This document shows, piece after piece, positions 1,001 to 17,921 of a stretch of 64,000 nt of DNA. The stretch spans positions 526,763 to 590,762 of the forward strand of contig CP060229.1 in the NCBI GenBank assembly GCA_023898585.1. Reading direction: 5' to 3'. The position numbers and the translations under genes are program-made. A model generated the notes under the pieces. That model made no database searches. It was not told the DNA's origin and saw only the letters and a program-made list of their open reading frames with translations. The stretch's first letter is position 1. Each line of letters opens with the position of its first letter. The stretch is from Candidatus Nomurabacteria bacterium (lineage in GTDB: Bacteria > Patescibacteriota > Minisyncoccia > Phycocordibacterales > UBA918).

Positions 1001-1079
1001 CGCTCACTTTTGCGCATAGTCACGGTTTTTTGTCAGTGTACAGACTGTGCAAGGCCTTGTATTATGCTACGCTTAATCC

Positions 1080-2384
1080 ATGTTTAATCTCAACATAGAT
1101 AAAATCAAAAGGATACATTTTATCGGTGTTGGCGGCATTGGTATGTCGGCACTAGCCAGGCATTTTCTGACCGAGAAAAAGAAAGTAAGTGGGTCGGATC
1201 GGGAGCTTTCAGATCTGACAAAAGATCTAAATAGTGAAGGTATTCAAATTTTTGCTGAGCATGCCAAGAGCAATATTACTAAAGAGATTGAGTTGGTAGT
1301 CTATACCGAAGCGGTCAATGAAAAGTCTGAAGGGTACATTGAACTCCAAGAAGCAAAGAAACTTAAAATTCCCACCCTTAACTACTTCGAAGCGCTTGGT
1401 TTGGCGATGAATCCGTACTACCTCATCGCAGTGGCAGGTACACACGGCAAGACTACCACCACCGCCATGTTAACTGATATTTTTGAATTTGCCGACAAGG
1501 ACCCCACCGCCGTTATCGGTTCGCTTCGAGCTAAAACAAAGAAGAATTATCGGGCTGGTAAGAGCAAGTATGCAATAGTTGAAGCATGCGAATACAAACG
1601 TGATTTTCTGCATTTAAAACCTGATGTTTTGGTGATAACCAACATCGAATATGACCACGTTGACTATTACAGCGACCTGAAAGACGTACAGTCAGCATTC
1701 AGGTCCTTAGCTGAGCAGGTCCACGAGACGGGAGTAGTGATAGCCAACTCAACCGAGCCCAACGTTGCACCGGTCGTGGAGGGTCTGAGTGTACCGGTGG
1801 TCAATTACGTGAGTCAGATCGATCTTAACCTAGACCTCAAACAACCCGGTCTTCACAATCGACTTAACGCGGCTGCTTCTACCGCAGTAGCCAAACATGA
1901 AAAACTTAATATGGAGAAGGTGAGCGAAGCTCTTTCTGGCTTTGCCGGTACTTGGCGTCGTTTCGAGTACAAAGGAGAAATGAACGGAGCTAAGGTTTTT
2001 AATGATTACGCTCATCACCCGACGGAGATCAGAGCGACGATTGATGCTGCGAGAGAGCTTTATCCTGATAAAAAATTAACGATTGTTTTTCAACCACATA
2101 TGTACACTCGTACCAAAGCTCTGTTTAACGAATTTGCCAAAGCTGTCGGTCTCGCTGATTCTGTTATCTTTCTACCGATCTACGCGGCGAGAGAGGATAA
2201 CGAAAGTGGGGTGACCAGTCGCGAGTTGTCGGTAAAATCACTTGAGTTCACTCCCAATTCACAGTATGCGGACTCTTTTGAAATGGCTGAAAACATATTG
2301 CGACAAAGCATGAACGAAGAAGATGTTATTTTGGTTATGGGAGCCGGTGATGTAACCAAACTGGCAGACGCACTAGTCGGGTAA
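1080..2384 (+). CDS. murC: UDP-N-acetylmuramate--L-alanine ligase MurC
   Basis: N-terminal IHFIGVGGIGMSALARHFL Rossmann motif of MurC. Mur-ligase central signature AVAGTHGKTTTTAMLT and a C-terminal domain are present. 434 aa. Confidence 0.9.
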   Translation: MFNLNIDKIKRIHFIGVGGIGMSALARHFLTEKKKVSGSDRELSDLTKDLNSEGIQIFAEHAKSNITKEIELVVYTEAVNEKSEGYIELQEAKKLKIPTLNYFEALGLAMNPYYLIAVAGTHGKTTTTAMLTDIFEFADKDPTAVIGSLRAKTKKNYRAGKSKYAIVEACEYKRDFLHLKPDVLVITNIEYDHVDYYSDLKDVQSAFRSLAEQVHETGVVIANSTEPNVAPVVEGLSVPVVNYVSQIDLNLDLKQPGLHNRLNAAASTAVAKHEKLNMEKVSEALSGFAGTWRRFEYKGEMNGAKVFNDYAHHPTEIRATIDAARELYPDKKLTIVFQPHMYTRTKALFNEFAKAVGLADSVIFLPIYAAREDNESGVTSRELSVKSLEFTPNSQYADSFEMAENILRQSMNEEDVILVMGAGDVTKLADALVG

Positions 2385-2476
2385 CTTTTTCGACGGAGGT
2401 TTGTTATACCAAAAGTACGCAATTATAGTTTAAGCTCTTGTGAGCGTTTTTAAATTTTAATCAGTAATACAAATTT

Positions 2477-3424
2477 ATGTTAAAAACAGCCGAATGTGTT
2501 TCTCCACGACACCCAGACAAATTATGTGACCGGATCTCAGACGCGATACTCGATGCATATCTCGAACAAGATCCAAAGAGCCGAGTAGCGGTAGAGACCG
2601 TCGGCTCGCACGGCAGAATTTTTGTTACGGGAGAAGTAACTACTTTAGCAAAGGATGTAGACGTCGTGAAAATAGTAGAAGAAATTGCCGGATCGGGCTA
2701 TTTGATAGATGTGCATATTGTTAAACAAAGTCCGGAAATAGCGCAGGGAGTGGATGTCGGAGGAGCGGGTGATCAGGGAATTATGACCGGTTATGCGACC
2801 AGGGAGACTGATACTTATATGCCAAAAGAATACGAGCTGGCTAGAAACTTGTGTCAAAAAGTTTATGAGAAATATCCTTACGACGGTAAAACCCAAGTCA
2901 CTATCAATAGTGAAGGAGAGGTCACTTCTGTAGTTTGTAGTTTTCAAAATGCACCCGGGGAAGAGCTGTCAAAGTTGGTTAAGTCGATTATTCCGGATGT
3001 TAAAGAGTATCATATTAACCCGGCAGGGGATTGGAACCAAGGCGGTTTTGATGCTGACGCAGGATTGACGGGCCGAAAAATTATCGTCGATAATTACGGC
3101 CCGGAAGTAGCAGTCGGAGGGGGAGCGTTTTCTGGCAAAGATCCTAGCAAAGTTGATCGTTCTGGAGCTTACATGGCGCGTCGGATCGCGGTTGATTATC
3201 TTGAAAAATATCCTGAAGCCGAGACGGTGCTTGTGAAGCTGGCGTATGCTATCGGTCATCCGGAAGCTTTGATGGCGGTGGCGATTGTAGATGGGGTTCC
3301 GGAAGAGGTAGAGGGGTATGACCTGACCCCCAACGGTATCAGGACACTGCTCGGACTCGATGCACCGATTTATACAGACACTGCAGCTTGGGGACATTTC
3401 GGTCGCGGTTTCAATTGGAAATAA
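2477..3424 (+). CDS. metK: S-adenosylmethionine synthetase (methionine adenosyltransferase), compact 315-aa form
   Basis: N-terminal GHPDKLCDRISDAILDAYLEQDP matches the MetK signature GHPDK(I/L)(C/A)DQISDA. The glycine-rich GGGAFSGKDPSKVDRSGAYMAR matches the MetK P-loop. It is shorter than the typical ~385 aa. Confidence 0.8.
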   Translation: MLKTAECVSPRHPDKLCDRISDAILDAYLEQDPKSRVAVETVGSHGRIFVTGEVTTLAKDVDVVKIVEEIAGSGYLIDVHIVKQSPEIAQGVDVGGAGDQGIMTGYATRETDTYMPKEYELARNLCQKVYEKYPYDGKTQVTINSEGEVTSVVCSFQNAPGEELSKLVKSIIPDVKEYHINPAGDWNQGGFDADAGLTGRKIIVDNYGPEVAVGGGAFSGKDPSKVDRSGAYMARRIAVDYLEKYPEAETVLVKLAYAIGHPEALMAVAIVDGVPEEVEGYDLTPNGIRTLLGLDAPIYTDTAAWGHFGRGFNWK

Positions 3425-3478
3425 AACAGATCTCGTCCAAAACTAAATTTTTGGTGAGATTGGTTCTTGGTTTTTAAA

Positions 3479-3506
3479 GGTGACGAGGCGAAGCCTCGTC
3501 ACCTTT
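3479..3506 (+). terminator. Rho-independent terminator after metK
   Basis: Perfect hairpin ggtgacgagg-cgaagc-cctcgtcacc followed by TTT. Confidence 0.6.
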
Positions 3507-3522
3507 ACTACAAGACTTATCG

Positions 3523-4233
3523 GTGGTAAAGTCTCAATACTTTGAGATATCAAAGTATGTTCCTAATTTGTTTTTTAAAAGGAGATCGAAAGTGGATATA
3601 TCCGACTTGGATGATCATACTGTTGCGAATTATATTGTGCGAGGATGTCCGGTATCTCATAAACACGTGTCACCTCAAGCGTGGCTACTCGTACTGGAAG
3701 AAATCTACACAGCTAGACCAATAGCTGAGAAAATGGGTTGCCTATTTACTAGGATAAGAGATTTGCATGGAAGACAATATGTCGGGTTTCCGGTACCAAA
3801 GGCAAGGACTAAATATGTCGGGGAGGTAAGAGCTAGTACAAAGGCAAGGATGGCCCAATTAGGCAATATCAGGGGTGATCTACCTTCTTCTCCCGGCGAG
3901 GTAAAGCAACGAAGTGGTGGATTTTTGTTGCTACTACAACCTGAAAAAATTGGTGGCAGACTTACGTTTGCTTACTGGAGTTTGGTATACGAACTGACAC
4001 TATTGTCTGACATTAAGGGATTTCGCCACGATACTATTATCAGTTCACAGGTAAATACTTTGGGTGAATCTGAAGTAATTGGTATCTTAAAGGATTATCC
4101 AAATGTGGTTTTTAGTTTTCTTGACCTAGCAGACTGGGTTGGTCAAGAAGCTAAACAAGCGATGGATAAAGCTGTCAGTTTGCTTGCTTTTGCGCAAAAG
4201 GTTCGCGATATGGAGCAGAGACTACGCTCCTGA
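3523..4233 (+). CDS. Hypothetical protein. The likely true start is GTG at 3592, which sits 6 nt after an AAAGGAGA ribosome-binding site and gives 214 aa.
   Basis: 236-codon ORF with no recognisable motifs. Flanked by strong terminators at 3479-3506 and 4254-4284. Confidence 0.45.
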   Translation: MVKSQYFEISKYVPNLFFKRRSKVDISDLDDHTVANYIVRGCPVSHKHVSPQAWLLVLEEIYTARPIAEKMGCLFTRIRDLHGRQYVGFPVPKARTKYVGEVRASTKARMAQLGNIRGDLPSSPGEVKQRSGGFLLLLQPEKIGGRLTFAYWSLVYELTLLSDIKGFRHDTIISSQVNTLGESEVIGILKDYPNVVFSFLDLADWVGQEAKQAMDKAVSLLAFAQKVRDMEQRLRS

Positions 4234-4253
4234 GTTTATAGCAAGGATAGTAA

Positions 4254-4284
4254 AAGCCAGGCGGTGGCACCGTCTGGCTTTTTG
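4254..4284 (+). terminator. Rho-independent terminator
   Basis: Hairpin agccaggcgg-tggca-ccgtctggct (one G:U pair) followed by TTTTT. Confidence 0.5.
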
Positions 4285-4313
4285 TACAGCTAATGTGATA
4301 GGGTATTTACATT

Positions 4314-4988
4314 ATGAAAGGCAAGTTATCATTGGTTGCAACACCAATAGGAAATCTTGAGGATATTACCTTGAGAGCAATTCGGGTGTTGAAGGAGGCG
4401 GATTATGTTTTGTGTGAAGACACCAGGGTCACTGGCGTTTTGTTGAAGAAATATGAAATTGAAGCCAAGCTAAAGCGTTATGATGCGCATGCTAGTGAAC
4501 AAACACATCTTAATGTCATTGATGATATAAAAAGCGGTAAGCAGATAGCGCTGGTTTCTGATGCAGGAACGCCTGGAGTGAGTGACCCTGGGGTGTTGTT
4601 GGTGAGGCAAGCCCGCGAAGCGGGTGTGTCGATTGAAGTGATTCCTGGTCCATCAGCGGTAACCTCTGCTTTTTCACTAGCTGGCATATCCGGTAACCAA
4701 TTTACTTTTCTTGGTTTCGTGCCTCAAAAAAAAGGTAGAGAAACTTTTTTTAAAGGTCTCTCGTCATACAAAGAACCGGTGATATTTTTTGAATCAACAC
4801 ATCGTATCCTTAAAACTCTGGTTTCACTCAATGATCATTTGTCGAACTCTAAGTTGTATATAGCCCGTGAACTGACAAAAATACATGAAGAAATGTTAAT
4901 CGGTACAGCAGGAGAGATATTGGCCGATCTGGAGGCGGAGCCAATTCGGCAAAAGGGAGAGTTCGTTGTTATAGTAGACAACCCATAG
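4314..4988 (+). CDS. rsmI: 16S rRNA (cytidine1402-2'-O)-methyltransferase RsmI
   Basis: N-terminal LSLVATPIGNLEDITLRAIRVLKEADYVLCEDTRVTGVLLKKY is diagnostic of the RsmI / tetrapyrrole-methylase fold. 224 aa. Confidence 0.85.
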   Translation: MKGKLSLVATPIGNLEDITLRAIRVLKEADYVLCEDTRVTGVLLKKYEIEAKLKRYDAHASEQTHLNVIDDIKSGKQIALVSDAGTPGVSDPGVLLVRQAREAGVSIEVIPGPSAVTSAFSLAGISGNQFTFLGFVPQKKGRETFFKGLSSYKEPVIFFESTHRILKTLVSLNDHLSNSKLYIARELTKIHEEMLIGTAGEILADLEAEPIRQKGEFVVIVDNP

Positions 4989-5142
4989 AGTTTATTGGTG
5001 AAAACAACCTTTATTTGTAGGTTTCGAGGGGTCTGATGTAGAATACGGACAATTAGCGCAGTCTTATCTTTGAATTCATCTTAAGAAGATGGACAGGTTC
5101 GTAGCTGAGCTTTTGTATCACGACTAATTTTCACTTCATTTA

Positions 5143-5370
5143 ATGTCAAAAGAAACACTAGTATTCATCTTCGGAATAATTCTGACCATCATACCGTTTC
5201 TTGGAATACCGGAATCGTGGCGCCAGTACAGCATCTTGGGCATAGGTGTTTTTCTGATTTTGATTGGCTATGCCCTGCGCCGGAAGGTTTACTTGGAGAG
5301 TATCGATAAGGGAAATGGTGAAAGAGGGGTGGATTCTTTCGTTGAAACCACCGAGAATCTTTTTGATTAA
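5143..5370 (+). CDS. Small two-helix membrane protein (75 aa), hypothetical
   Basis: ORF with two hydrophobic segments, lying in the intergenic gap before 5390. No ribosome-binding site is evident. Confidence 0.3.
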   Translation: MSKETLVFIFGIILTIIPFLGIPESWRQYSILGIGVFLILIGYALRRKVYLESIDKGNGERGVDSFVETTENLFD

Positions 5371-5389
5371 TGTGCGGTAGAATAGAATT

Positions 5390-6727
5390 ATGAATAAGAT
5401 CGGTACGCCACTTATTGTAGTCACTTCGGCTTTTGCTGTTTTAAGTTTTGTTCCTTTATCTCACTTTGATGTCGTGACGGAAAAGGCCACGTATGCAAGA
5501 GATCAAGAAGAATCAATTGAATCCAATGAAATCAGTTCTTTGGAAGAACCAACCCCAGATATGTCGGTTGATTTAAGGGAAGTTGTCAAACATGTGCCTT
5601 TACCGGAACAAGTCAAGGCCATTTATATGACCTCGTGTGTCGCCGGCACACCAACTTTCCGAACACGTTTGGTGGAGTTGATACGTGAAACTGAAATCAA
5701 TTCTGCCGTCATTGATATCAAAGATTATTCCGGGACAATATCATTTCCCGCCCAGAGTTCCGCTTGGCAATCAGCTTGGTATGAGGCACGGTGCGGAACC
5801 AAAGACATGCCTCAATTAGTAGAGATGCTTCACGATAACGGTATTTACGTGATCGGTCGCATTACCGTTTTTCAAGATCCTTTTTACGCACCGAAACACC
5901 CCGAACTGGCAGTGCTGAGGGGTGATAAGAAAACTGTTTGGACTGATCACAAAGGATTGTCTTTTATCGACGTCGCAGCCAAACCGTACTGGGATCATAT
6001 TATAGAATTGTCAGTCGATTCATATAATATCGGCTTTGATGAGTTGAATTATGATTATGTTCGATATCCTTCGGATGGAAATATGGCTGACACTTATTAT
6101 CCCCAAAGCGTAGCTGGTAAATACGGTATGGATCGACAGGCCAATCTGGAAGAATTCTTTCGGTACTTAAATCAAGAGTTGGATAAGGAAGATAAATTTT
6201 CCACAGTCCGTCACGAGAACACCGGGCGATCCTCAAGCACCCCATGGACATCAGTCGATTTATTCGGAATGACAACAACCAACTTCGACGATCTGTCTAT
6301 CGGTCAAGTGCAAGATCGGGCAGCTCCGTATTTTGATTTTGTCGCCCCGATGGTTTACCCTTCTCACTATCCAAACAGTTTCTTAGGTCTTGGAAATCCC
6401 AACAATCATCCATACAAGGTGGTTAATTATGCGATGCAGAGTGGAGTAGACCGAATGAGGTCGAGCACCACACCTATGCAAGGTTTCTTACATACCAGAA
6501 TAGGAACCAGTACCCCGGCCATTTATTCCAAACCCGTTTACGGACCGGATAAACTTCGCACGTGGATTCAAGACTTTGACTATGGGGGAGACTATGACGC
6601 AACGGATGTGCGAGCTCAAATTCAAGCTAGTTATGATGCCGGAGTTAAGAGCTGGATGGTCTGGGCACCGTCAAATATTTATACTAGAGAGGCTCTGGAA
6701 CTTTCTAGCACAACGACAAGTTACTAG
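5390..6727 (+). CDS. Secreted/membrane-anchored protein, putative TIM-barrel glycoside-hydrolase-like (DUF4015/GHL-type)
   Basis: N-terminal hydrophobic segment. The central region (IYVIGRITVFQD...FIDVAAKPYWDHIIELSVDSYNIGFDELNYDYVRYP) resembles bacterial glycoside-hydrolase-like TIM-barrel families. The family assignment is from memory only. Confidence 0.45.
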   Translation: MNKIGTPLIVVTSAFAVLSFVPLSHFDVVTEKATYARDQEESIESNEISSLEEPTPDMSVDLREVVKHVPLPEQVKAIYMTSCVAGTPTFRTRLVELIRETEINSAVIDIKDYSGTISFPAQSSAWQSAWYEARCGTKDMPQLVEMLHDNGIYVIGRITVFQDPFYAPKHPELAVLRGDKKTVWTDHKGLSFIDVAAKPYWDHIIELSVDSYNIGFDELNYDYVRYPSDGNMADTYYPQSVAGKYGMDRQANLEEFFRYLNQELDKEDKFSTVRHENTGRSSSTPWTSVDLFGMTTTNFDDLSIGQVQDRAAPYFDFVAPMVYPSHYPNSFLGLGNPNNHPYKVVNYAMQSGVDRMRSSTTPMQGFLHTRIGTSTPAIYSKPVYGPDKLRTWIQDFDYGGDYDATDVRAQIQASYDAGVKSWMVWAPSNIYTREALELSSTTTSY

Positions 6728-6731
6728 AATT

Positions 6732-7676
6732 ATGAAAATATTAGTCACAGGAGGAGCCGGTTTTATAGGCAGTGCGGTAGCGAGATCGTTGATTGATTCC
6801 GGTCATGATGTAACGGTGGTGGATAATTTCAATGATTATTATGAAGTTTCGCTCAAACATGACCGAGTTAAAGAATTTCTGAACGGGGCGAAAGTGATTG
6901 AGGCAGACATAAGAGACAGGGACAAAATCGGAGAACTTTTTGAACAGAATAGATTTGATGTTGTTTGTAACTTGGCAGCGATGGCCGGCGTGCGGTATTC
7001 GGTCGAACATCCGGACATTTACGTGGATGTGAATATTAATGGTCTTGTCAATATACTGGAAGCGATGCGGGAACACGGTTGTTTGAGGATGGTGTCCGCT
7101 TCTAGCTCTTCTGTCTACGGTAACAGTTCAGACTCACCCTATAAGGAAAACATGGTCGCCGATCGCCCGGAGTCCGTATATGGTGCTACCAAGAGGGCTG
7201 GTGAACTTCTTCTTTACAGCTACTTTACGCTTTACGGTATCCAGGCGACGAGCTTTCGGTTTTTTACAGTCTATGGACCGTGGAGCAGACCAGACATGGC
7301 AATGCTAAAATTTGCCAAGAGGATATCTAAAGGTGAGACCATTGATGTCTACAATAACGGCAAACTAAGAAGAGACTTCACATACATAGACGATATTGTG
7401 TCAGGCTTTGTTTTAGCGGTTGAAAAACCGGTTGGTTATGAAGTGGTTAACTTGGGAAGGGGCGAACCGGTTGAACTCATGGATTACATAAAAAAACTGG
7501 AAGAAAACCTTGGCTTAAAAGCCAAAATGAATCTATTGCCGATGCAACCGGGCGATGTTTACGAGACCTTTGCCGACACAACCAAAGCTAAAGAGTTGTT
7601 TGGGTACGAACCAACGGTAAGGGTTGATGAGGGGATAGAAAGATTTGTCGAGTGGTACCGGTATTACTACTCTTGA
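6732..7676 (+). CDS. NAD-dependent sugar-nucleotide epimerase/dehydratase (UDP-glucuronate/UDP-GlcNAc 4-epimerase-like, SDR family)
   Basis: ATG at 6732 gives MKILVTGGAGFIGSAVARSLIDSGHDVTVVDNFNDYY with the Rossmann motif GxxGxxG. The SDR catalytic motif YGATKRAGE (YxxxK) is present. The track ORF 6576.. overlaps the upstream gene, so the start was trimmed. Confidence 0.8.
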   Translation: MKILVTGGAGFIGSAVARSLIDSGHDVTVVDNFNDYYEVSLKHDRVKEFLNGAKVIEADIRDRDKIGELFEQNRFDVVCNLAAMAGVRYSVEHPDIYVDVNINGLVNILEAMREHGCLRMVSASSSSVYGNSSDSPYKENMVADRPESVYGATKRAGELLLYSYFTLYGIQATSFRFFTVYGPWSRPDMAMLKFAKRISKGETIDVYNNGKLRRDFTYIDDIVSGFVLAVEKPVGYEVVNLGRGEPVELMDYIKKLEENLGLKAKMNLLPMQPGDVYETFADTTKAKELFGYEPTVRVDEGIERFVEWYRYYYS

Positions 7677-7760
7677 ATTTTTGTGCGATTGAAACAAGTT
7701 GTTGTATAATCTGAATCAGAATAGAAACCAAGAATCAGCTTACAGTTCAGGAGGATAGAA

Positions 7761-7943
7761 ATGACCGTAAGTATATGTGGTGTTTTAGTTTACGAAGAAG
7801 CGAGTGATAGTGACCTTAGATCTTTACTTAAAGAAATAGGTCGCAATGGAGAAATGGAGAGGGGAGAAGATATACGAAAGATTATAGAGTCGATACTGGA
7901 CCGGAGAAGTGAGTCCAAAATAAGTAACGATATTGTCTCGTAA
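7761..7943 (+). CDS. Small acidic hypothetical protein (60 aa)
   Basis: AGGAGGA ribosome-binding site 6 nt upstream of the ATG. Lies in a 400-nt intergenic region. A hairpin accccga-ttattt-tcggggt at ~7978-7998 follows it. Confidence 0.3.
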   Translation: MTVSICGVLVYEEASDSDLRSLLKEIGRNGEMERGEDIRKIIESILDRRSESKISNDIVS

Positions 7944-8085
7944 TCGGATTATGATAGTATAATTTTTTCCTCCCAATACCCCGATTATTTCGGGGTATTT
8001 TCATCATCAGCTAGTCTATTCTTAACCCGTTACGTGAAACATCAACGAGAGGCTGTGAGCTAATCGGTTTTGAGCGGATTGTGTA

Positions 8086-8976
8086 TTGTATTATGTAGTT
8101 ATGTCTCAAAAAACAGACTCTTCTTTTAAGTTGTATTCATATTCTGACGACCAACCGCGTAATGGAAAAGGAACTCTGATACCGACAAAGGGTCAGAGGT
8201 GTGAGTTCACGCCCATTAGCGCCAGGTCCATCGAAAAAGAATCAAAGATCAAAGCCAAAGTGGTTGTCGCCGTACTTGGTTTGTTTGTGTTGTCTGTTTT
8301 AGGGGCTACTAGTTACGGTTTGGTAGCAAAGGCAAATTTGGCCTCAGCCCCGAGTGTAACCATTGTCGACTCACATACACAAAGCGCAACCGCTCTTGAT
8401 TACGGTCCGCAAGTTGCTCTCTCTGAAACCGGTTTGTTCACTAAGACAAGAGATTCTTTTATCGATGAAAGTATGACCTTTATCGAGATAGATATAACCG
8501 AGCGTCAATTGCGTTTTTTTAAGAAGGGTATTCTGTTGCAAAGTGCAGAGATATTTAGTGTCGGAGACAAAGGTTCTTGGTGGGAGACACCCTCCGGTCT
8601 TTATAAAATTGAGAAAAAAGAAGAGAAATCTTTCACCAATATCGGTCAAGTGTACCTGCCCTGGATTCTGACTTTCCAAAGTAATTACGTCATACATGGT
8701 TTGCCGGTTTATCCAGATGGTACCGAGGTCACGGATGATTTTTCCGGCGGAGGAATACGCCTGAGTGACGAATCGGCACAAATACTGTTTAAAAATGTGA
8801 AGATCGACACCCCCGTATTGGTGTATTCGGTAAAAAAAGAAGATAGGGATACTTTCGTCTATGAACCGAAGGTGCCCGAACTCGATATACCGCATTATTT
8901 CGTGGCCGATATAGACAATGACACAATTCTTGCCACAAGTGATTTGGATGAGCAGGCCCCATTGCTTCACTTGTAA
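8086..8976 (+). CDS. Membrane-anchored YkuD/L,D-transpeptidase-like domain protein. It is the N-terminal part of a frameshift-interrupted fusion with a D,D-carboxypeptidase.
   Basis: TM helix (VVVAVLGLFVLSVLGA). YkuD-like motif IHGLPVYPDGTEVTDDFSGGGIRLSDESAQILFKNV, in which the catalytic Cys of the canonical SHGCIRL is replaced by Gly. The C-terminus (ADIDNDTILATSDLDEQ) resembles the N-terminus of PBP5-type D,D-carboxypeptidases. Confidence 0.6.
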   Translation: MYYVVMSQKTDSSFKLYSYSDDQPRNGKGTLIPTKGQRCEFTPISARSIEKESKIKAKVVVAVLGLFVLSVLGATSYGLVAKANLASAPSVTIVDSHTQSATALDYGPQVALSETGLFTKTRDSFIDESMTFIEIDITERQLRFFKKGILLQSAEIFSVGDKGSWWETPSGLYKIEKKEEKSFTNIGQVYLPWILTFQSNYVIHGLPVYPDGTEVTDDFSGGGIRLSDESAQILFKNVKIDTPVLVYSVKKEDRDTFVYEPKVPELDIPHYFVADIDNDTILATSDLDEQAPLLHL

Positions 8977-8978
8977 AG

Positions 8979-9569
8979 TTGATGACAGCGGTGGTGGCGG
9001 CCGAAAACATTGATCTTGATGGTCGCGTGCGGGTAACATCGCCAACTTTTGTCACTTCTCTCATTCCGCGTTTGTCCGAAAGAAGTAGTGTCTCGATGTA
9101 CAGCTTGCTACAGTTGTTATTAGTGGAATCGTCGAACGAAGCAGCCGAAACAATAGCGGGTGAAGTGGGCCGAGATAAATTTATCGAGGCCATGAACGCG
9201 AAAGCGAGACAACTGGGAATGATGAATACGAAATTCACCGATCCTTCGGGCTTAAGCGCCGAAAACGTTTCAACCATTGGAGATTTACATCGTTTAATAA
9301 AATACATTTACAATGATAGAAATTTCATCATTGACATCACCGCCGACAAGAAATTACCAAATGCTCATATCGGTGGTGAATTCGACGGTTTAATCAATTT
9401 CAACGAAGTCAAAGACATGGACAACTTTGTGGGAGGAAAGGTGGGTGAGACGTTGGCCGCCGGACAGACATCCATTTCACTCCATACCTTGCAAATCCAG
9501 GGAGAAGAAAGGACTGTTGTGGTAATTTTACTTGGTTCCAAGAGTCGGGCTGAAGATACAAAAAAATAA
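8979..9569 (+). CDS. D-alanyl-D-alanine carboxypeptidase (peptidase S11/PBP5-like) domain. It continues the upstream ORF after a 1-nt frame change.
   Basis: SxN motif LVESSNEAA and a KTG-like GGKVGET motif. The SxxK active-site motif (PIASLVKLMTAVV) is encoded in this same frame immediately upstream (8958-8990), but that stretch is cut off by an in-frame TGA at 8949-8951. Confidence 0.6.
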   Translation: MMTAVVAAENIDLDGRVRVTSPTFVTSLIPRLSERSSVSMYSLLQLLLVESSNEAAETIAGEVGRDKFIEAMNAKARQLGMMNTKFTDPSGLSAENVSTIGDLHRLIKYIYNDRNFIIDITADKKLPNAHIGGEFDGLINFNEVKDMDNFVGGKVGETLAAGQTSISLHTLQIQGEERTVVVILLGSKSRAEDTKK

Positions 9570-9618
9570 TTTCCCACGTCCAAAATCAGTTTGTCCACTA
9601 GTGTTATACTAAAACAAT

Positions 9619-11844
9619 ATGACAGTCTTTGAGCCGGAGAAGATTACTTTTTTTGCCAAGACCGATGCGCGCGGTAAGGAGGTGGCTTTCGGTATTAAGG
9701 CAAAAGACCGACAACGACACATGTACGTGGTTGGTAAAACCGGTATGGGTAAATCTACGTTGCTCGAAAACATGGCGGCGCAAGATATTCAAAATGGCGA
9801 AGGGATGGCCTTTATTGATCCGCACGGTTCGGCGGCGGAGACACTGTTGGAGTACGTTCCGGAGCACCGGGTCGAGGATGTGATCTACTTTGCTCCATTT
9901 GATTTAGACAATCCTATTTCCTTCAATGTGATGGAAGATGTCGGCCCGGACAAGAGGCATTTGGTGGTGTCCGGTTTAATGTCCACTTTTAAAAAGATTT
10001 GGGTGGATCAGTGGAGTTCCAGAATGGAATATATTTTAACGAACGCGCTTTTAGTTTTGATTGAATATCCCGACACCACTTTATTGTCTGTTAATCGACT
10101 TTTTTCAGATAAAGCTTATCGTAAAAAAGTCGTGGATTATTGCAAAGATCCGGCGGTGAAATCGTTTTGGGTGGATGAGTTTGCAAACTACACGGATCGT
10201 TTCGCTGCCGAGGCTTTACCTGCGATTCAGAACAAGATCGGACAATTCACCGGCAATCCTTTGATCAGAAATATTGTCGGGCAACCACACTCCAGTTTCG
10301 ATATCAGAAAAATAATGGATGAAAAAAAGATTCTCATTATGAATCTCTCCAAGGGTTTGATTGGGGAGACAAACGCCAATTTGCTCGGCTCTATGTTGAC
10401 CACGCGTATTTATCTGGCGGCCATGAGTCGGGCGAATCTACATGTGTCGGAAATGAAAAAGATGCCGAATTTTTATTTTTACGTGGATGAATTTCAGTCT
10501 TTTGCCAACGCCACCTTCGCTGACATTCTTTCAGAAGCCAGAAAATATCATTTGAATCTAATTATTGCCCATCAATACATTGAACAAATGGAGGAGAGTG
10601 TGAGAAATGCAGTTTTTGGCAACGTTGGCACCACTATCGCTTTCCGAGTCGGTCCGTTTGACGCCGAGGTATTGGAGACTGTTTTCGCTCCTCGGTTTGA
10701 GGCGACGGATTTGGTCAATCTCGGTTTCGCTCAAATTTACCTTACGCTGATGATTGACGGTATCGGCTCGCAACCTTTTTCCGCTTCTACTTTACCTCCG
10801 GTTGCACTTCCGCGTGTATCGTGTCGGGAGATGGTGATCAACTCAAGCAGAAAAGTATATGCTAAAGACAGAGTCTCAGTAGAGAAGTTGGTTGATGAAC
10901 TGCATACTCCGGAACGACCGGAACCCGCCCCCAAAAAGAATTTTAATGAAAAACCAACCGGTAATTATCAAGGTAAGAACTCTTTACCTGCGAACAAGAA
11001 TAATACAAACGCACAATCCAGCCCGGTAATCAGACAAAACCGAAATGACATATCTCATGTCGCCAAAACAAACCCTGATTCAAGGATTGATAAAGAATCT
11101 CCCAGAAATTCACTCAAGGTGAATTCGGAAAGACGCCCGCCGGTTGTCGAGAAAACACCCGAAGACTTACGGAATATTCTTTTAAAAATGACTCAAAAGA
11201 CCACACCGGAAAAGAAAAATAATTCCGTGTCAGTCAGTGTTAACAGTAGTGAAGGATCAAAGGAGGAAGATGTCCCCGACAAAACATTCGCCGATAAGCC
11301 GGAAAAAAAGCTGGAGGTGAATCGAGATCAATCCACTTTTAAATCGAGAGCCGATCAACCAAAAGACAATGGTTCACCAAAACCCGACCTCAAGAGCGCG
11401 TTAGCAGATGTTTTAAAAAAAGCCGGAGCAACAGCAGATCTACAATCGAAAAGTCAGCAAACCACCACTTCTTCTCAGCCACAACAGTTGTCGGAAGCTA
11501 AAAAGCATCAATCAAGGCAACAGACTGTTGAACCGCTCGAACCCAGACCAGCCCCACCGTTGATTAGTCACAGAGAGCACAAACCGATATTGACGAACCC
11601 TGTTACGCTCAATAATCTGTCGGCTGAGAAATCGCAGATCAGAAAAGTCGTCGTCGAACATCGAAAACGAAGACAAATTGAAGACAATGAGACAGGGGGA
11701 TTTGGCTCCACCATAAGATTTTCTCCCAGATTTGACAGAAGTGCCGACCAAACTGAAGCGTCGTCTAACAAGTCAGTCCTTGATGTAGCTGAGATCAAAA
11801 GAATGCTACGTCACAACGATAATGAAAGGTCCCCGTTTAATTGA
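9619..11844 (+). CDS. P-loop ATPase of the TraG/TraD/VirD4 coupling-protein (AAA_10/DUF87-like) family with a ~300-aa low-complexity K/P/S/E-rich C-terminal tail
   Basis: Walker A VVGKTGMGKST. The motif AFIDPHGS matches the DPKG motif of type IV coupling proteins. Walker B FYFYVDEFQSF. No N-terminal TM helices. Residues ~430-741 are compositionally biased and probably disordered. Confidence 0.6.
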   Translation: MTVFEPEKITFFAKTDARGKEVAFGIKAKDRQRHMYVVGKTGMGKSTLLENMAAQDIQNGEGMAFIDPHGSAAETLLEYVPEHRVEDVIYFAPFDLDNPISFNVMEDVGPDKRHLVVSGLMSTFKKIWVDQWSSRMEYILTNALLVLIEYPDTTLLSVNRLFSDKAYRKKVVDYCKDPAVKSFWVDEFANYTDRFAAEALPAIQNKIGQFTGNPLIRNIVGQPHSSFDIRKIMDEKKILIMNLSKGLIGETNANLLGSMLTTRIYLAAMSRANLHVSEMKKMPNFYFYVDEFQSFANATFADILSEARKYHLNLIIAHQYIEQMEESVRNAVFGNVGTTIAFRVGPFDAEVLETVFAPRFEATDLVNLGFAQIYLTLMIDGIGSQPFSASTLPPVALPRVSCREMVINSSRKVYAKDRVSVEKLVDELHTPERPEPAPKKNFNEKPTGNYQGKNSLPANKNNTNAQSSPVIRQNRNDISHVAKTNPDSRIDKESPRNSLKVNSERRPPVVEKTPEDLRNILLKMTQKTTPEKKNNSVSVSVNSSEGSKEEDVPDKTFADKPEKKLEVNRDQSTFKSRADQPKDNGSPKPDLKSALADVLKKAGATADLQSKSQQTTTSSQPQQLSEAKKHQSRQQTVEPLEPRPAPPLISHREHKPILTNPVTLNNLSAEKSQIRKVVVEHRKRRQIEDNETGGFGSTIRFSPRFDRSADQTEASSNKSVLDVAEIKRMLRHNDNERSPFN

Positions 11845-11847
11845 TCT

Positions 11848-13263
11848 ATGAGAGTGGCCCGGTTTTGCCTTCTTTTCATAATGCTACCATTAGTCACTGA
11901 AGGTGCGGTTTCAATCAGTGAAGTGGCGTGGATGGGTTCCTCTGAATCTGCCAATCATGAATGGATTGAATTACATAATGATGGCGAAGCGATTGATGTG
12001 ACAGGATGGGTTATAAATGATGGGATGAATTTGAACATTGAATTGACTGGAGTCATACCGGCCGGTTCATACGTAGTTCTTGAAAGAACTAGTGACGCGT
12101 CGGCAAAGGGAGAAGCTTTTTTAATCTACACCGGGGCACTCGTTAACACCGGCGCCACGCTTAGAATGGAAAGAAGCGACGGCACTTTGGTCGATCAAGT
12201 CGCCGGTGGTGAGAATTGGATAAATATAGGAGGTGATAATCTGACAAAAGAGACTGCCCAATACACAACAAGTGGCTGGAAGACAGCCATCGCCACTCCA
12301 GGGAGTGGTTTGGTCTGGAACGGGGAAGAAGAAAGAGAAAGTAAAGAAGTAACAGAATCTCGTCAATCGGCTGTCAAGCAAGTCTCCAAGAGTAGCTCTG
12401 ACAGCAAAGAAACAGTGAAATTGGTGATACCTGATGTGACGTTACAATTGCATATTGATGCGCAAAAAGTGGGATATGTCCATCAGCCTATTTCTTTCAA
12501 CGTTAAACCGAGCGGTATAGGCAAACATCTGATTGATTCGTTGGAGTACAAGTGGAATTTTGGAGACGGACTAACCGGTTCACAAAAAGATACACAACAC
12601 GTATTTGATTATCCGGGCACATACGTTGTGACCGTACATGGTCTATACAAGAGACAAGAACAAGTTTCGAGACACGAGATAACCATCCTACCGGTCAAAG
12701 TTTCCTTAACGACTAATGTTGAAGGGGATATACAAATTAATAATGACTCACCTTACGAGTTGGATTTATCCGGGTATCGTCTTAAAGGAGAAGCCGAATT
12801 TATTTTTCCTTCGTACACAATTGTTTTACCGAATCAAACAGTCACTATACCAAAAAAGAAGCTGGGTAAAACCAAGTCAAGATTAGTCGCCTTATACGAC
12901 ACAGAAAATGCATTGTTGTCGTCTTCTGTTCCCGAGGTGTTGAATGATGTGATTTCTGACAATGACTTTCAAGCTTCGGAATTCTACACTCATATCAACA
13001 GCAATTTGCTTTATGAGGAAGAGTTTTCAGCCGAGAGGTTTTCTGATAATTTCAGCTTCAGCACTAAGGAAGAAGAGACCGAGACGAGAGATCCGGAAAT
13101 TTCTGAATCCACGCTAGAATTACCGTCACTGAGCCAGACTGCCAACGTTACAGAAGCGTTTGGTGATACGAAACCACATTGGAGCAATCTCGCTCTCGTT
13201 GGAGTATTGAGTCTCGGTATTCTAGGTATTTACGCCACGCCGAGGCGTAACGAAAAGAAATAA
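11848..13263 (+). CDS. Secreted surface protein with lamin-tail-domain (LTD), PKD domain, a second LTD-like domain and a C-terminal TM anchor
   Basis: Signal peptide MRVARFCLLFIMLPLVTEGA. LTD signature ISEVAWMGS...EWIELHNDGEAIDVTGWVINDG...RMERSDGTLVDQV. PKD motif YKWNFGDGLTGSQKDTQHVFDYPGTYVVTV. C-terminal hydrophobic anchor LALVGVLSLGILGIY. Confidence 0.7.
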   Translation: MRVARFCLLFIMLPLVTEGAVSISEVAWMGSSESANHEWIELHNDGEAIDVTGWVINDGMNLNIELTGVIPAGSYVVLERTSDASAKGEAFLIYTGALVNTGATLRMERSDGTLVDQVAGGENWINIGGDNLTKETAQYTTSGWKTAIATPGSGLVWNGEEERESKEVTESRQSAVKQVSKSSSDSKETVKLVIPDVTLQLHIDAQKVGYVHQPISFNVKPSGIGKHLIDSLEYKWNFGDGLTGSQKDTQHVFDYPGTYVVTVHGLYKRQEQVSRHEITILPVKVSLTTNVEGDIQINNDSPYELDLSGYRLKGEAEFIFPSYTIVLPNQTVTIPKKKLGKTKSRLVALYDTENALLSSSVPEVLNDVISDNDFQASEFYTHINSNLLYEEEFSAERFSDNFSFSTKEEETETRDPEISESTLELPSLSQTANVTEAFGDTKPHWSNLALVGVLSLGILGIYATPRRNEKK

Positions 13264-13299
13264 AATTTGGTAATATTCAATTTACAATTAACACGAAAC

Positions 13300-14253
13300 A
13301 TGAATTCTAATAAGGGAACATTTATCATCAGTATTGATTTTGAGTATGCTATTGGTTATGCGGATGAAAAACTCAGTCAAGAGAGACAAGAGCTGATAAA
13401 AAAAGAAGCGGAGATTTCACGAAAGCTCATAACTCTGTTTGAAAGATACAAAACACCGGCCACTTGGGCGATTGTTGGACACTTACTCGAAACCGATTGT
13501 CGGGTGGAAGAAGGCAGGGTGCACAGCAACTTCCCGAAGCAGGTGTATGTTGATGGAAATTCGGATTGGTTTGCACATCATCCTCCGGCTGGTGATTACG
13601 CTGACCCACTTTGGTTTGATAGCATCGGGATAATCAGACAAGTTAAAAATTCTCCCGTTGGTCACGAGATTGCTAGTCATTCATATTCTCATGTCCTCTA
13701 CGGCGAGCCGAGAATCAGGACCGAAGCGGTGTTGGTTGATATCGGTGAAGCTATGAGGATTCATAAAGAAAATGACTTACCCTTCAATTCTTTTATCTTC
13801 CCACGCAACAGCGAAGGTTACCACGAAGAGCTTAAGCAAGCCGGTATCAAGTGTTACCGAGGTAAAAGCAGATTTTGGTACCACAGGTTGCCTGGATCAA
13901 TAGGTCGCTTGGCTCGCCTGTTTGATTACTTGATTCCATATACGCGTACGGTGGTAGCTACCTACCATGAGTCTGGTCTCGTAAATATTCCGGATTGTCT
14001 ATTGCTTCTTGGTAGAAACGGTTTGAGAAAATTAGTTACTCCCTCTGTGATGAAAAGGAAAATTAAAGCCGGGCTTAGACAAGCTGTCAAACGAAAAGGG
14101 ATTTTCCACCTCTGGTTTCACCCGTCGAATTTCTCCTACGACACGGCAATACAGTTTGAGATCATGGAAGAAGTTTTGATTTTTGCCGACGAATTAAGGA
14201 GTAAAGGAAAACTGGAGATAGCCACCATGCAGGTTGTGGCAGACAAAATCTAA
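13300..14253 (+). CDS. Polysaccharide deacetylase (NodB/CE4-like) family protein
   Basis: The motif HEIASHSYSHV sits in a CE4-like context. The ATG at 13300 is preferred over the track start at 13267. Confidence 0.65.
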   Translation: MNSNKGTFIISIDFEYAIGYADEKLSQERQELIKKEAEISRKLITLFERYKTPATWAIVGHLLETDCRVEEGRVHSNFPKQVYVDGNSDWFAHHPPAGDYADPLWFDSIGIIRQVKNSPVGHEIASHSYSHVLYGEPRIRTEAVLVDIGEAMRIHKENDLPFNSFIFPRNSEGYHEELKQAGIKCYRGKSRFWYHRLPGSIGRLARLFDYLIPYTRTVVATYHESGLVNIPDCLLLLGRNGLRKLVTPSVMKRKIKAGLRQAVKRKGIFHLWFHPSNFSYDTAIQFEIMEEVLIFADELRSKGKLEIATMQVVADKI

Positions 14254-15083
14254 TGTATTATTGTGAAACTATGAATGACAACACCAATTCGAAAACTTTA
14301 AAATTTAGAGAAAAGGCCGTTAATTCCCACGACTTCAATTCACCCGTCTTTTTTGACCGTTATGTGATTATGGATAAGAATCCTTACGCCAGTGCTTTTG
14401 CTTACGGCCGTAAGAAGATGTTTGAGAAAATGAATCGTATAGTAAATGAGCGACTAAACGGCAAAGGCAAAATTCTCGAAGCTGCTTGCGGGACTGGTTA
14501 TTACATTTCCGTTCTTAAAAAAAATGGTTATGAAGTAACCGGGGTTGAGCCGGCAGAAGGAATGAGGAGAAAAGCGTTGGAAAAAAATCAAAGTGTCGAA
14601 ATAAAAGAGGGAATTATTACAGCCTTACCTTTCCCCGATAATCATTTCGATGCGGTCACTGCGATTGAATTATTTCGTTATTTGGAGAAGGACGATATTA
14701 AAAAAGGGTATGAAGAGATTTTGCGTGTTCTAAAGCCCGGTGGTTTTATGGTGGTGACACTAGTTAATAAGTACGCGCTCGATGGTTTTATATTTTCTTA
14801 CTACATAAAGCTGATGATGGAGAAAGTGTTTGGTAAAGAGATAATCAATTACTGCGATGCTGTTACGCCCTCCGGGATGAAAAAATATTTCGCAAAGAAT
14901 TTTGAGTGTGAAATCGAGACTGAGTCTGCTCTGTTTGCGCCACTACGAATAGTGTACAAAATATCGCCGAAGCTCGGAGAAAAATGTGCTCGCAAGTTTG
15001 AGTCTTTTGACGAAAAAATAAACACCAAAAAATGCCACGAAAAATTTGCCGGACATTTAATAATGGTGGTAGAAAAAAAGTAA
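14253..15083 (+). CDS. Class I SAM-dependent methyltransferase
   Basis: Motif I ILEAACGTGYYISVL. Post-motif acidic loop VTGVEPAEGM. Motif LKPGGFMVV. Confidence 0.75.
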   Translation: MYYCETMNDNTNSKTLKFREKAVNSHDFNSPVFFDRYVIMDKNPYASAFAYGRKKMFEKMNRIVNERLNGKGKILEAACGTGYYISVLKKNGYEVTGVEPAEGMRRKALEKNQSVEIKEGIITALPFPDNHFDAVTAIELFRYLEKDDIKKGYEEILRVLKPGGFMVVTLVNKYALDGFIFSYYIKLMMEKVFGKEIINYCDAVTPSGMKKYFAKNFECEIETESALFAPLRIVYKISPKLGEKCARKFESFDEKINTKKCHEKFAGHLIMVVEKK

Positions 15084-15089
15084 ATCATT

Positions 15090-15956
15090 ATGTCTGACAA
15101 AAAACGAGCGTTGGTTACGGGTGGTGCCGGTTTTGTTGGTTCGCACCTTTGTGAACGCTTGGTTAGCGAAGGTTTTGCAGTTATTTCACTTGATAATTAT
15201 TTCACCGGTTCAAAAGACAATCATGTCGCAGGCGTTGAATATAGAGAAGGACATACGAAAAACATATCCGACTTGGTGCCGGAAAATGTTGATGTGGCAT
15301 TTCACTTGGGAGAGTACTCACGAACTGCGGTTGCTATGGAAGAACCGGCCGTTGTTTTCGACTTGAATATCTTGGGCACAATAGCGGTCGTTGAATGGTG
15401 GAGGAAGCACAAGTGTAAATTGGTTTACGCCGGGTCTTCAACCAAGGGAGCGCCCGATCGTGAAGATGGGATATCTGGTCGAGACCTCTCACCATATACC
15501 TGGAGCAAGGCGGTAAATACTGAGCTGGTGGCAAATTACGCGCTTTGGTACGATCTGCCCTATGCCGTTTCTTATTTCTATAATGTTTACGGACCGAGAG
15601 AGTTGAGCGGGCGCTACGGAACCGTGGTGGAGATTTTCGCCGAGCGCAAGAATAGAGGGGAAAAATGTAAGGTTAATGCGCCGGGCACCCAAACTCGAGC
15701 ATATACCCATGTCCTTGATACTGTTGAAGCTCTAATGCTGATCGCACAAAAAGGCGAGGGAGATAATTTCGGTATTGCTTCCGGTGACGTATTCTCACCG
15801 ATTGAGTTGGCGACTATGTACGGACTGGAGGTCGATTTACAACCCGCCCGCAAGACCAGTCGACCTTCTTCAAATGTGGTAGTGGAAAAGACGGTTGCTC
15901 TTGGTTGGCAACCAACCCATTCACTGAAAGACTACATTAACGAAAGAATTCAATAA
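15090..15956 (+). CDS. NAD-dependent epimerase/dehydratase, UDP-glucuronate decarboxylase (UXS)-like
   Basis: RALVTGGAGFVGSHLCERLVSEGFAVISLDNYFTGSKDNH, where the DNYFTG(S/R)K motif is typical of UXS-type enzymes. YxxxK motif PYTWSK. Confidence 0.7.
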   Translation: MSDKKRALVTGGAGFVGSHLCERLVSEGFAVISLDNYFTGSKDNHVAGVEYREGHTKNISDLVPENVDVAFHLGEYSRTAVAMEEPAVVFDLNILGTIAVVEWWRKHKCKLVYAGSSTKGAPDREDGISGRDLSPYTWSKAVNTELVANYALWYDLPYAVSYFYNVYGPRELSGRYGTVVEIFAERKNRGEKCKVNAPGTQTRAYTHVLDTVEALMLIAQKGEGDNFGIASGDVFSPIELATMYGLEVDLQPARKTSRPSSNVVVEKTVALGWQPTHSLKDYINERIQ

Positions 15957-15968
15957 TTAAATGAATTT

Positions 15969-17180
15969 ATGAAAAAGAAAATTCTTATTTTTGATCTGAA
16001 TTATTATCCCGATCATGTCGGAGGAGCCGAGGTGGCGGTGAAAGAAATTACTGACAGAATTTCACCGGAAGATTATGAATTTCACATGGTGTGTCTTGGG
16101 TATGACAGTAAACTACCGAAGGAAAGTCGAGAGGGTAATGTCTATGTGCACCGAATCGGTTTTACCCGACCCAATGTCAAATTGGAAGATTTGAGTAGAT
16201 TTCCGCTCCACTACAATAAGTACCTCTATCTCTTTTTGTCGCCACTAAAAGGAATGATGCTTCATCGAAAGGAAAAGTTTGATGCGACTTGGTCAATGAT
16301 GGCGCATCCGAGCGGAATCCCCCAGGCGATTTTCGGTCTATTTTACCCTCGGGTGAAGCGCATTCTTACCCTACAAGAGGGTGACCCTCCCGAGCAAATG
16401 GAAAGACTTTATAAACCACTTTGGCCTTTGTTTAAAAGAGTTTTCACCAAAGCTGATGTGATTCAGGTAATTTCGCATTTTTTGGAGAAGTGGGCGCGTG
16501 ATATGGGTTATAAAGGAGAGATTGAATTCATCCCCAATGGTGCCAGTACGGAGTCGGCGGGGGCTAGAGCCGATGAAGAAACTCTGGAAAAACTCGGAAG
16601 ATTGGTGGGTAAAAAAGACGGGGAAGTAATGCTGATTTCGGTTTCCCGTCTGGTCCATAAAAACGCGGTCGATGATGTGATAAAAGCTTTGGCTTTATTA
16701 CCGCCCAATTTCAAATTGTTGATTGTTGGTGGCGGGGAAGACGAAGATAAACTCAAAGAGTTGGCGAAAGAAAAAGGAGTAGGAGAAAGAGTGATATTTA
16801 CCGGACACGTTGATCGCACCATGACAGCGCAGTATAGACAAATATCTGACATTTTCATAAGACCGAGTCGCTCTGAAGGATTCGGCAATTCATTCGCTTC
16901 TTCAATGGCGTTGCGTTTGCCGGTTATTGCCACTCAAGAAGGAGGTATTGCTGATTTTCTTTTTGATGAAAAAAGAAATCCTGACAAAGACACGACCGGC
17001 TGGGCGGTCGATAAAGACTCCCCCGAACAGATAGCCGAACAAGTAAAAAATATTCTCGCCAATCCGGAATTCGTGAAAAAGGTGACAGACAACGCTTACG
17101 AAATGGTGATGACTACCTACAACTGGAAATTCATATCTAAAAACATGAAAGAAAAAGTTTTTGACAAAATGTTGAAATAA
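15969..17180 (+). CDS. Glycosyltransferase family 4 (GT-B)
   Basis: C-terminal GT4 signature RPSRSEGFGNSFASSMALRLPVIATQEGGIADFL, matching the E-x7-E region. Confidence 0.85.
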   Translation: MKKKILIFDLNYYPDHVGGAEVAVKEITDRISPEDYEFHMVCLGYDSKLPKESREGNVYVHRIGFTRPNVKLEDLSRFPLHYNKYLYLFLSPLKGMMLHRKEKFDATWSMMAHPSGIPQAIFGLFYPRVKRILTLQEGDPPEQMERLYKPLWPLFKRVFTKADVIQVISHFLEKWARDMGYKGEIEFIPNGASTESAGARADEETLEKLGRLVGKKDGEVMLISVSRLVHKNAVDDVIKALALLPPNFKLLIVGGGEDEDKLKELAKEKGVGERVIFTGHVDRTMTAQYRQISDIFIRPSRSEGFGNSFASSMALRLPVIATQEGGIADFLFDEKRNPDKDTTGWAVDKDSPEQIAEQVKNILANPEFVKKVTDNAYEMVMTTYNWKFISKNMKEKVFDKMLK

Positions 17181-17252
17181 TAGCGTATTTATGCTCTAAT
17201 ACTAATTAGAAGTTAAACTAAACCAGGCTAAAATAGTCCTAAGGAGAACGAA

Positions 17253-17921
17253 GTGAAGAAAACAAATTTGGTTGATGTTTCGGTAGCAAATCTCATTACC
17301 GGGATGAAGTCTCCAGATGGAGAGATAATTTCGTTTGCGGTCAGACACCCTTCTGATCCAGTGAAACCCTGGCAGGCATTGAGCGCTGGGCCGAAATTCC
17401 CGGAGAAAGCGAGAGATTTCCTGATTACTGAGTTTGGTGCTGACCTTGAAGGGTTTATGAACGACGACGCCCGGTGTCGTATTCCAGAATCCATGGTCGC
17501 TGGTTTTCATCACTGGCTCAATGATCAATTTTACATTCTCGAACGACTGGCTGTAATGGAGTGGGAACCCCGGCCGGAATTGCGCGAAAGAATGACCGGA
17601 AAATACTGGGGTGATTTACCGTCGATCATTACCGACGCGGACTTTGAATCGGTAGTCCTTCATAATTCCGACTTGGTTCGTCAACCACCACCCGAAGAAG
17701 GAAGTTCGCCCGGAGGAAGAGGGGCCAAAGTTCGTCTTTTCAGGAGGTGGTACATGACCATCTTGGATGAGAAGGTAGCTTCCAAGATAATCAATCATCC
17801 TGCTGTACTTACTTTGACCGAAGCAGAACTCGCGACGACTAAAGGTGGTCGTTGTATCGGTTGGGCGAAGAACGGAGTACGGCTCGCCAACAATCTCGGT
17901 GTGGTTGGTTGGCTTGAATAA
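17253..17921 (+). CDS. Hypothetical protein (222 aa)
   Basis: AAGGAGA ribosome-binding site 5 nt before a GTG start. No recognisable motifs. Followed by a strong terminator. Confidence 0.5.
   Translation: MKKTNLVDVSVANLITGMKSPDGEIISFAVRHPSDPVKPWQALSAGPKFPEKARDFLITEFGADLEGFMNDDARCRIPESMVAGFHHWLNDQFYILERLAVMEWEPRPELRERMTGKYWGDLPSIITDADFESVVLHNSDLVRQPPPEEGSSPGGRGAKVRLFRRWYMTILDEKVASKIINHPAVLTLTEAELATTKGGRCIGWAKNGVRLANNLGVVGWLE

Follow-up and report, generated by a model that had tools for sequence, protein, structure and literature searches.

The forward strand of a 64-kb stretch of a Candidatus Nomurabacteria bacterium genome (contig CP060229.1, positions 526,763 to 590,762; hereafter the window) carries two adjacent open reading frames (ORFs) that are halves of one conserved cell-wall enzyme gene. 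The source record is a single-contig metagenome-assembled genome (MAG) of 994,774 bp, in which both fragments are annotated as separate proteins. Coordinates given here are positions in the window, and residue numbers are those of the repaired protein. ORF1 (8086..8976, + strand, frame 1; USN91805.1, 291 aa) starts with TTG at 8086, with an ATG also present at 8101. From N to C terminus, it encodes a cytoplasmic tail, a transmembrane (TM) anchor, a YkuD-like domain with the L,D-transpeptidase (LDT) fold, and the first ~35 residues of an S11-family penicillin-binding protein (PBP) domain; its 3′ end is out of frame and finishes ...APLLHL before the stop codon. ORF2 (8979..9569, + strand, frame 0; USN91806.1, 195 aa), whose TTG start at 8979 is a mechanical assignment, occupies most of a second-frame segment (8952..9569, + strand) in which Pfam and tblastn searches detected the S11 DD-peptidase core. 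This segment is open after a TGA at 8949-8951, which closes the second frame just 5′ of a CCCC run.

Pfam searches placed the YkuD-like domain of ORF1 at 8479..8823 (residues 127-241; PF03734, 51.0 bits against a cutoff of 23.4, E 3e-13, profile positions 3-146 of 146), and a family profile matched the same domain to the Enterococcus faecium enzyme Ldtfm (E 1e-4). Upstream of it, a single N-terminal TM helix of the signal-anchor type (8248..8343, + strand, residues ~50-81, KVVVAVLGLFVLSVLGATSYGLV) was recognized as a hydrophobic stretch and as helix 50-81 of an AlphaFold model. ORF2 alone matched Peptidase_S11 (PF00768) with 74.6 bits against a cutoff of 27.6; this match begins at profile position 44, and ORF2 therefore lacks the SxxK motif. 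That motif, S290-L-V-K293 (8967..8978, + strand), belongs to the peptide PIASLVK of the second frame (8958-8978). ORF1 is read in a different frame there, and every ORF2 start lies further downstream, so that neither annotated product contains the motif. ORF2 does encode the SxN motif (S344-S-N346, 9129..9137, + strand) and the KTG equivalent (K447-V-G449, 9438..9446, + strand). In 60 aligned homologues, the Ser and Lys of SxxK and the SxN motif are invariant, and the middle residue of the KTG equivalent is Val in 56 and Ile in four. The initial annotation of this locus had described ORF1 as an anchored YkuD protein that ends in the start of a PBP domain, ORF2 as the carrier of the SxN and KTG-like motifs, and PIASLVK as cut off by the TGA at 8949-8951, and each of these descriptions proved accurate.

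Two single-base contractions in one gene

Two homopolymer runs in the gene have each contracted by one nucleotide and break its reading frame: C5 has become C4 at 8957-8960, and A8 has become A7 at 9560-9566. A tblastn search traced the protein across window frames 1, 3 and 2. The first contraction (+ strand) shifts the reading from frame 1 to frame 0. Adding one C to this run extended the S11 match to residues 257-460 (profile positions 6-221, 100.3 bits), in agreement with the earlier proposal that a single gene is split at the C run. The same proposal held that one C would restore an uninterrupted protein. This was correct for the S11 join, but one added C is insufficient for the full protein because of the second 1-nt loss, at the A7 run, which had been overlooked. 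The second contraction (+ strand) shifts the reading from frame 0 to frame 2, creates a TAA at 9567-9569, and pushes the last 12 codons of the gene into the third frame. The resulting third-frame tail (9566..9601, + strand) consists of coding sequence at 9566-9598 and a TAG stop at 9599-9601; it was identified by alignment and by tblastn (frame 2, residues 488-500), and its peptide, IISHVQNQFVH, is the end of a conserved C-terminal helix.

Restoring C4 to C5 and A7 to A8 yields a 505-aa product with no amino-acid differences from P0125, a protein encoded on an independent ENA metagenome contig. Indels aside, the gene differs from its closest allele by six synonymous single-nucleotide polymorphisms (SNPs) and by no amino-acid change, and therefore shows no sign of decay. 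Orthologues split at the same position, which the initial annotation had named as counter-evidence, were not encountered: the gene is intact in five independent assemblies from at least four samples (L001, L002, L008, L017, and L018; 98.7-99.7% DNA identity), and unsplit YkuD+S11 proteins of ~500 aa account for all of the best 120 homologues listed (54-99% identity; the alignment covered 60). The named homologues among those listed belong to Paceibacteria, Nomurabacteria, Kaiserbacteria or Parcubacteria. At the first site, the relatives carry either C5 (L001 and L018) or CTCCC (L002, L008, and L017); at the second, the closest alleles (L017 and L018) carry A8, and L001, L002, and L008 carry AAGAAAAA. 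The exact products of ORF1, ORF2, and the downstream gene are on record only in the source genome. The same strain occurs at 100% identity in the sequencing runs SRR32608987, SRR15882951, SRR26387399, and SRR6747711. Same-strain short-read contigs end at window position 8216, short of both lesions, and a pattern scan of JGI metagenome contigs across the first site (C4, C5 or CTCCC) returned no match. Given that the two losses are absent from every relative examined, the split is accidental, neither designed nor regulated, and has an ordinary cause, be it a fault of assembly or a lesion of very recent origin.

The distribution of intact alleles also bears on the suggestion, part of the initial annotation, that full-length enzyme is made under the control of programmed frameshifting or of a phase-variable homopolymer. 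Single-tRNA slippage is conceivable at the first site, where a −1 shift at ...GCC CCA... would restore the frame, and transcriptional slippage is conceivable at a low level at the A7 run. However, the frameshift is conserved in none of the five near-identical relatives and in none of the more than 100 orthologues listed, no X XXY YYZ heptamer is present, predicted folding of the downstream RNA does not exceed that of shuffled sequence (z 0.58), and a single mRNA would require two independent recoding events. As for phase variation, three of the five relatives carry CTCCC in place of an unbroken C tract, a G breaks the A tract in three of the five, tract length differs in the window only, and C4 is far shorter than tracts known to phase-vary. 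We regard regulated frameshifting or switching as effectively refuted. The earlier list of possible causes (sequencing error, recent pseudogenization or a slippery site) thus included the right answer, and its last item found no support.

The source record itself implies another arrangement, in which USN91805.1 and USN91806.1 come from two functional genes and each work alone, the former as an anchored YkuD-like protein and the latter as an S11 protein. Against this annotation, ORF2 has no SxxK nucleophile, no signal peptide, and no TM segment, it enters the S11 profile only at position 44, and it is deprived of the conserved end of the C-terminal helix. Moreover, the first ~35 S11 residues belong to ORF1, and no orthologue among the best 120 listed is organized in this way. 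Neither ORF would be expected to function by itself. Two separate genes are therefore exceedingly improbable, and even taken together with programmed frameshifting they account for very little of the probability.

Consensus error or recent inactivation

Our single best guess, held at an even chance, is that the split originated as a homopolymer consensus error in the MAG assembly. A 1-nt homopolymer contraction is a classic long-read consensus error, and both lesions are contractions of this kind. Strong conservation of the gene in a lineage with streamlined genomes likewise favours an error, as do the absence of decay, the identity of the repaired product with P0125, and the intact alleles of all relatives examined. 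Both lesions fall at sites where a SNP lies in a homopolymer, as would be expected of a consensus artefact, but 17 other such sites are unaffected, so that this placement favours neither origin. In addition, the gene is located where strain heterogeneity begins: only one SNP distinguishes the window from its relatives in the first ~7 kb, and divergence is 1.5-3% from ~8.2 kb. Three short-read contigs (L021, L023, and L024) all stop exactly at window position 8216, at the start of the gene. This position is a strain-heterogeneity boundary, the hardest ground for consensus calling, and we count it in favour of an error. A control came from the Logan contig L013 (SRR14493005), which has no SNPs relative to the window over 4.3 kb and yet contains two homopolymer contractions 526 bp apart (G5 to G4 and T5 to T4, at window positions 19569 and 20095). 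These contractions split genes of 359 and 183 aa that are intact in the window and in five other assemblies. Clustered homopolymer discrepancies therefore do arise between assemblies of this organism.

Several observations weigh against a consensus error. No further window-specific indel occurs in 28.4 kb of comparable DNA, which includes ~200 homopolymers of at least 5 nt, and 17 other sites at which a SNP makes or breaks a run of at least 5 nt are unaffected. A search for other split genes across the 64 kb found none. We estimated the a priori chance of two random errors falling within one 1.5-kb gene at only about 2-8%, and this low value favours a real lesion followed by neutral decay. Accordingly, a genuine and very recent strain-specific pseudogenization, in which one homopolymer slippage inactivated the gene and a second one (at the A8 hotspot or at C5) was neutral, retains a probability a little below even. 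Homopolymers are genuine hotspots of mutation, an A8 run is confined to the window's own allele group, and both of the sole window-specific indels in 28 kb sit in this one gene, with no other gene broken. On the other hand, the lack of amino-acid substitutions and the presence of only six synonymous differences from the nearest intact allele mean that any inactivation must be extremely recent. Furthermore, conservation of the gene across a lineage with streamlined genomes of ~1 Mb is strong and its catalytic residues do not vary, the split allele occurs in no other public assembly, and similar clustered discrepancies between assemblies were seen with the L013 control.

A generally error-prone assembly was considered separately and rejected, as the window contains no other broken gene. 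The pair 43198-45426 and 45429-46517 was examined as a candidate split gene and dismissed, the two being distinct genes that encode a Wzy_C+TPR protein and MurB. The region at 26.1-27.1 kb aligned to L011 without gaps. Two studies considered as the origin of the MAG were rejected: the MAGs of the NanoPhase paper are on Figshare, and a Japanese activated-sludge study deposited its data in DDBJ. An intergenic T6 run upstream of the gene (7963-7968) is also T6 in six other contigs but T7 in the short-read contigs L021 and L023; either close strains differ in the length of this homopolymer or a length is in error. In a related strain (L010), two 1-nt indels that lie 4 bp from each other and compensate relative to the window occur inside the 183-aa gene (window 19912-19916).

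Architecture and predicted activity of the intact protein

The intact product is a bitopic membrane protein of ~500 aa that is conserved in Paceibacteria-type Patescibacteria. An AlphaFold model built on a 60-sequence alignment (mean pLDDT 77, with both domains at ~85-95) shows a disordered cytoplasmic tail, the TM helix, a beta-rich YkuD fold, a penicillin-binding-protein fold, and a long C-terminal helix. The cytoplasmic tail contains a strongly conserved motif ahead of the TM helix (L-x-S-Y-x-D-D-Q-P-x-x-G-x-G-x-L-I-P; 8101-8190, residues 1-30), in which G24, I27, and P28 are invariant. The clade that lacks the YkuD cysteine and the closest neighbours that still have it account for most occurrences of this motif, and the majority of the wider family is without it. 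A partner in the cytoplasm may dock there.

The YkuD-like domain has a degenerate active site, S215-G-G-G-I-R220 (8743..8760, + strand) in place of S-H-G-C-I-R, with G218 (codon 8752-8754) at the position of the catalytic Cys. When the YkuD region was compared with the Protein Data Bank (PDB) as a single sequence, only noise was returned. A family profile was needed for the match to Ldtfm (1zat and 6fj1, E 1e-4), and in this alignment the SHGC of Ldtfm pairs with SGGG, G218 with Cys442, and G216 with His440. The replacement of Cys by Gly proposed in the initial annotation is thus borne out by alignment. At the Cys position, the 60 close homologues have Gly in 59 cases and Asp in one. An upstream His (H199), ~18 residues before the Cys position, is kept in 60/60 and aligns with the His of the 'IHD' motif of Ldtfm. 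Without the Cys, the domain is unable to form a thioester acyl-enzyme and is therefore a pseudo-enzyme domain. Ldtfm (1zat, 6fj1, and 3zg4) and the window protein share a YkuD match above the Pfam cutoff, a conserved 'IHG' His, and the G-x-I-R context, but they differ in that Gly replaces both the catalytic Cys and the preceding His in the window and in 59 of the 60 close homologues.

As judged from sequence and predicted fold, the S11 domain is of the single-domain PbpG/PBP7 type rather than of the PBP5 type assigned initially. Its best matches are the PbpG/PBP7-type DD-endopeptidases of Enterobacter cloacae (6azi) and Yersinia enterocolitica (6muq) and the related low-molecular-weight PBPs Listeria PBPD2/Lmo2812 (5zqa) and Mycobacterium tuberculosis Rv2911 (4rye and 4p0m). 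For these, phmmer gave E 1e-20 to 2e-16; with Bacillus subtilis DacB included, the range was 1e-20 to 2e-15. The best Foldseek matches, all single-domain S11 PBPs, had E ~5e-15 and a TM score to target of 0.69-0.79. The best-scoring NCBIfam model was PbpG (NF008668, PRK11669), although its 92 bits fell short of the equivalog cutoff of 294; DacA scored 34.8 against a cutoff of 694. With the PbpG/PBP7-type enzymes, the window protein shares SxxK, SxN, a similar catalytic-domain length, and the absence of a PBP5-type C-terminal domain. Unlike in them, its S11 domain follows a TM anchor and a YkuD-fold domain in the same polypeptide, it has K-V-G instead of K-T-G as the third motif, and identity is limited to 26-28%. 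Escherichia coli PBP5/DacA (1nzo) has the same S11 fold and SxxK/SxN/KxG geometry but is a weaker match (E 2e-7, 22-24% identity). It also possesses a C-terminal beta-sandwich domain and an amphipathic anchor, whereas the window protein has neither and is anchored at its N terminus. A Pfam search found no PBP5-type C-terminal domain, and the protein ends one helix past the catalytic domain.

The third motif, K-V-G, aligned to the KTG of Rv2911, and its Lys and Gly are invariant in the 60 homologues. Throughout the window's clade, the KTG box reads K-V-G or K-I-G, an unusual replacement of Thr/Ser.

From these features, we propose that the S11 domain would be the sole covalent catalyst of the intact protein, acting as a DD-carboxypeptidase or DD-endopeptidase that trims or cleaves peptidoglycan stems containing D-Ala. 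The YkuD domain, devoid of its Cys, would serve as a non-catalytic module that binds or positions the stem peptide. Both the function given to the YkuD-like domain and the choice of S11 substrate derive from homology only, which counts against this proposal. With respect to annotation, USN91805.1 and USN91806.1 should be treated as fragments and not as a stand-alone L,D-transpeptidase and a stand-alone carboxypeptidase, and the name 'L,D-transpeptidase' is misleading for the window's clade because the nucleophile is absent.

The YkuD-S11 family and the surrounding genes

When a profile for the YkuD-like domain was run against 1.84 billion cluster representatives, it retrieved 921 matches, 402 of them at E<=1e-10. 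Motifs were counted in the best 150 of the 921 representatives. An S11 domain is also present in 131/150, and the YkuD-S11 fusion is therefore the norm in this family. The initial annotation had called the fusion itself unusual; it is instead the standard architecture of a large Patescibacteria family, and the members that carry a source name are all from Patescibacteria. The catalytic Cys (SGGCIRL) is retained in 134/150, which makes the change from Cys to Gly a derived state of the window's clade and a few neighbours. In the wider family (P0171-P0318), the Cys-containing members also have S-G-G-C rather than canonical S-H-G-C, the His before the Cys being missing family-wide.

The 131 fused representatives were sorted by their motifs. 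Of these, 56 combine the Cys with all three intact S11 motifs, and 18 have the Cys and SxxK with another S11 motif altered. In 46, the Cys is present and SxxK is lost; in 11, the Cys is lost and SxxK is intact, 10 of them with all S11 motifs intact. None has lost both the Cys and SxxK. The losses of SxxK are real substitutions in a well-anchored alignment (e.g., PLGGFGQF and PMGAATHL), and on a crude neighbour-joining tree we counted ~5 changes of state for the Cys and ~15 for SxxK. Among these best 150 representatives, the pattern suggests that the two domains act as a pair of which at least one must stay catalytic. The window's clade would represent the 'dead LDT, live DD-peptidase' state. 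A broader idea, which we put forward only tentatively and consider rather doubtful, is that this large, uncharacterized family of anchored YkuD-S11 proteins is built on an obligate domain pair in which one domain has been repeatedly inactivated and the dead one kept as a substrate-binding partner.

The pairing has a counterpart in a two-protein pathway of E. faecium, in which, as summarized in PMC12729407, a DD-carboxypeptidase (DdcY) supplies the tetrapeptide donor to an LDT (Ldtfm) (Sacco et al., 2010). As in that pathway, a D-Ala-removing enzyme is here paired with a YkuD domain, both motif sets being kept in 56/131 representatives; the carboxypeptidase partner here is a serine PBP of the S11 family and not a metallo-enzyme. 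Members with both nucleophiles could combine D-Ala removal and 3-3 cross-linking in one polypeptide. In the window's clade, the coupled pathway is inoperable as such, since its LDT half is dead as a catalyst. A structure described as a fusion of a Zn DD-carboxypeptidase-family domain and a YkuD-like region (PDB 4xxt) was a weak match (E 0.13). In the literature that we searched, including a 2025 review of LDTs, we found no description of serine-PBP/YkuD fusions or of Patescibacteria LDTs. The protein is built from two known domain families, and the reciprocal-loss pattern is the only lead of moderate novelty.

To our knowledge, almost nothing has been established experimentally about how Patescibacteria build and remodel their cell walls. 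The conserved, anchored fusion described here, in which an LDT fold is joined to a DD-peptidase and active sites are lost reciprocally, offers a testable handle on this problem. Such tests would address the types of cross-link made, a possible substrate-binding role of pseudo-enzyme domains, and beta-lactam binding by the family.

Upstream of the split gene, a 60-aa ORF without a family match (7761-7943) is conserved in every relative and predicted there as a gene. Behind it lies a perfect hairpin, ACCCCGA-TTAT-TCGGGGT (7976-8000). A scan for consensus terminators did not flag this hairpin, which is probably a terminator between the 60-aa ORF and the enzyme gene. On a larger scale, window positions 1-19601, with the boundary near 8216, look like the edge of a strain-variable island whose cargo comprises a VirD4/TrwB-like coupling protein, an LTD/PKD surface protein, methyltransferases, and glycosyltransferases. 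The window also holds peptidoglycan-precursor genes (a Mur ligase and MurB), a gene for a Wzy_C/TPR O-antigen-ligase-like membrane protein, and a giant 2604-aa ORF (1080-2384, 45429-46517, 43198-45426, and 54859-62673).

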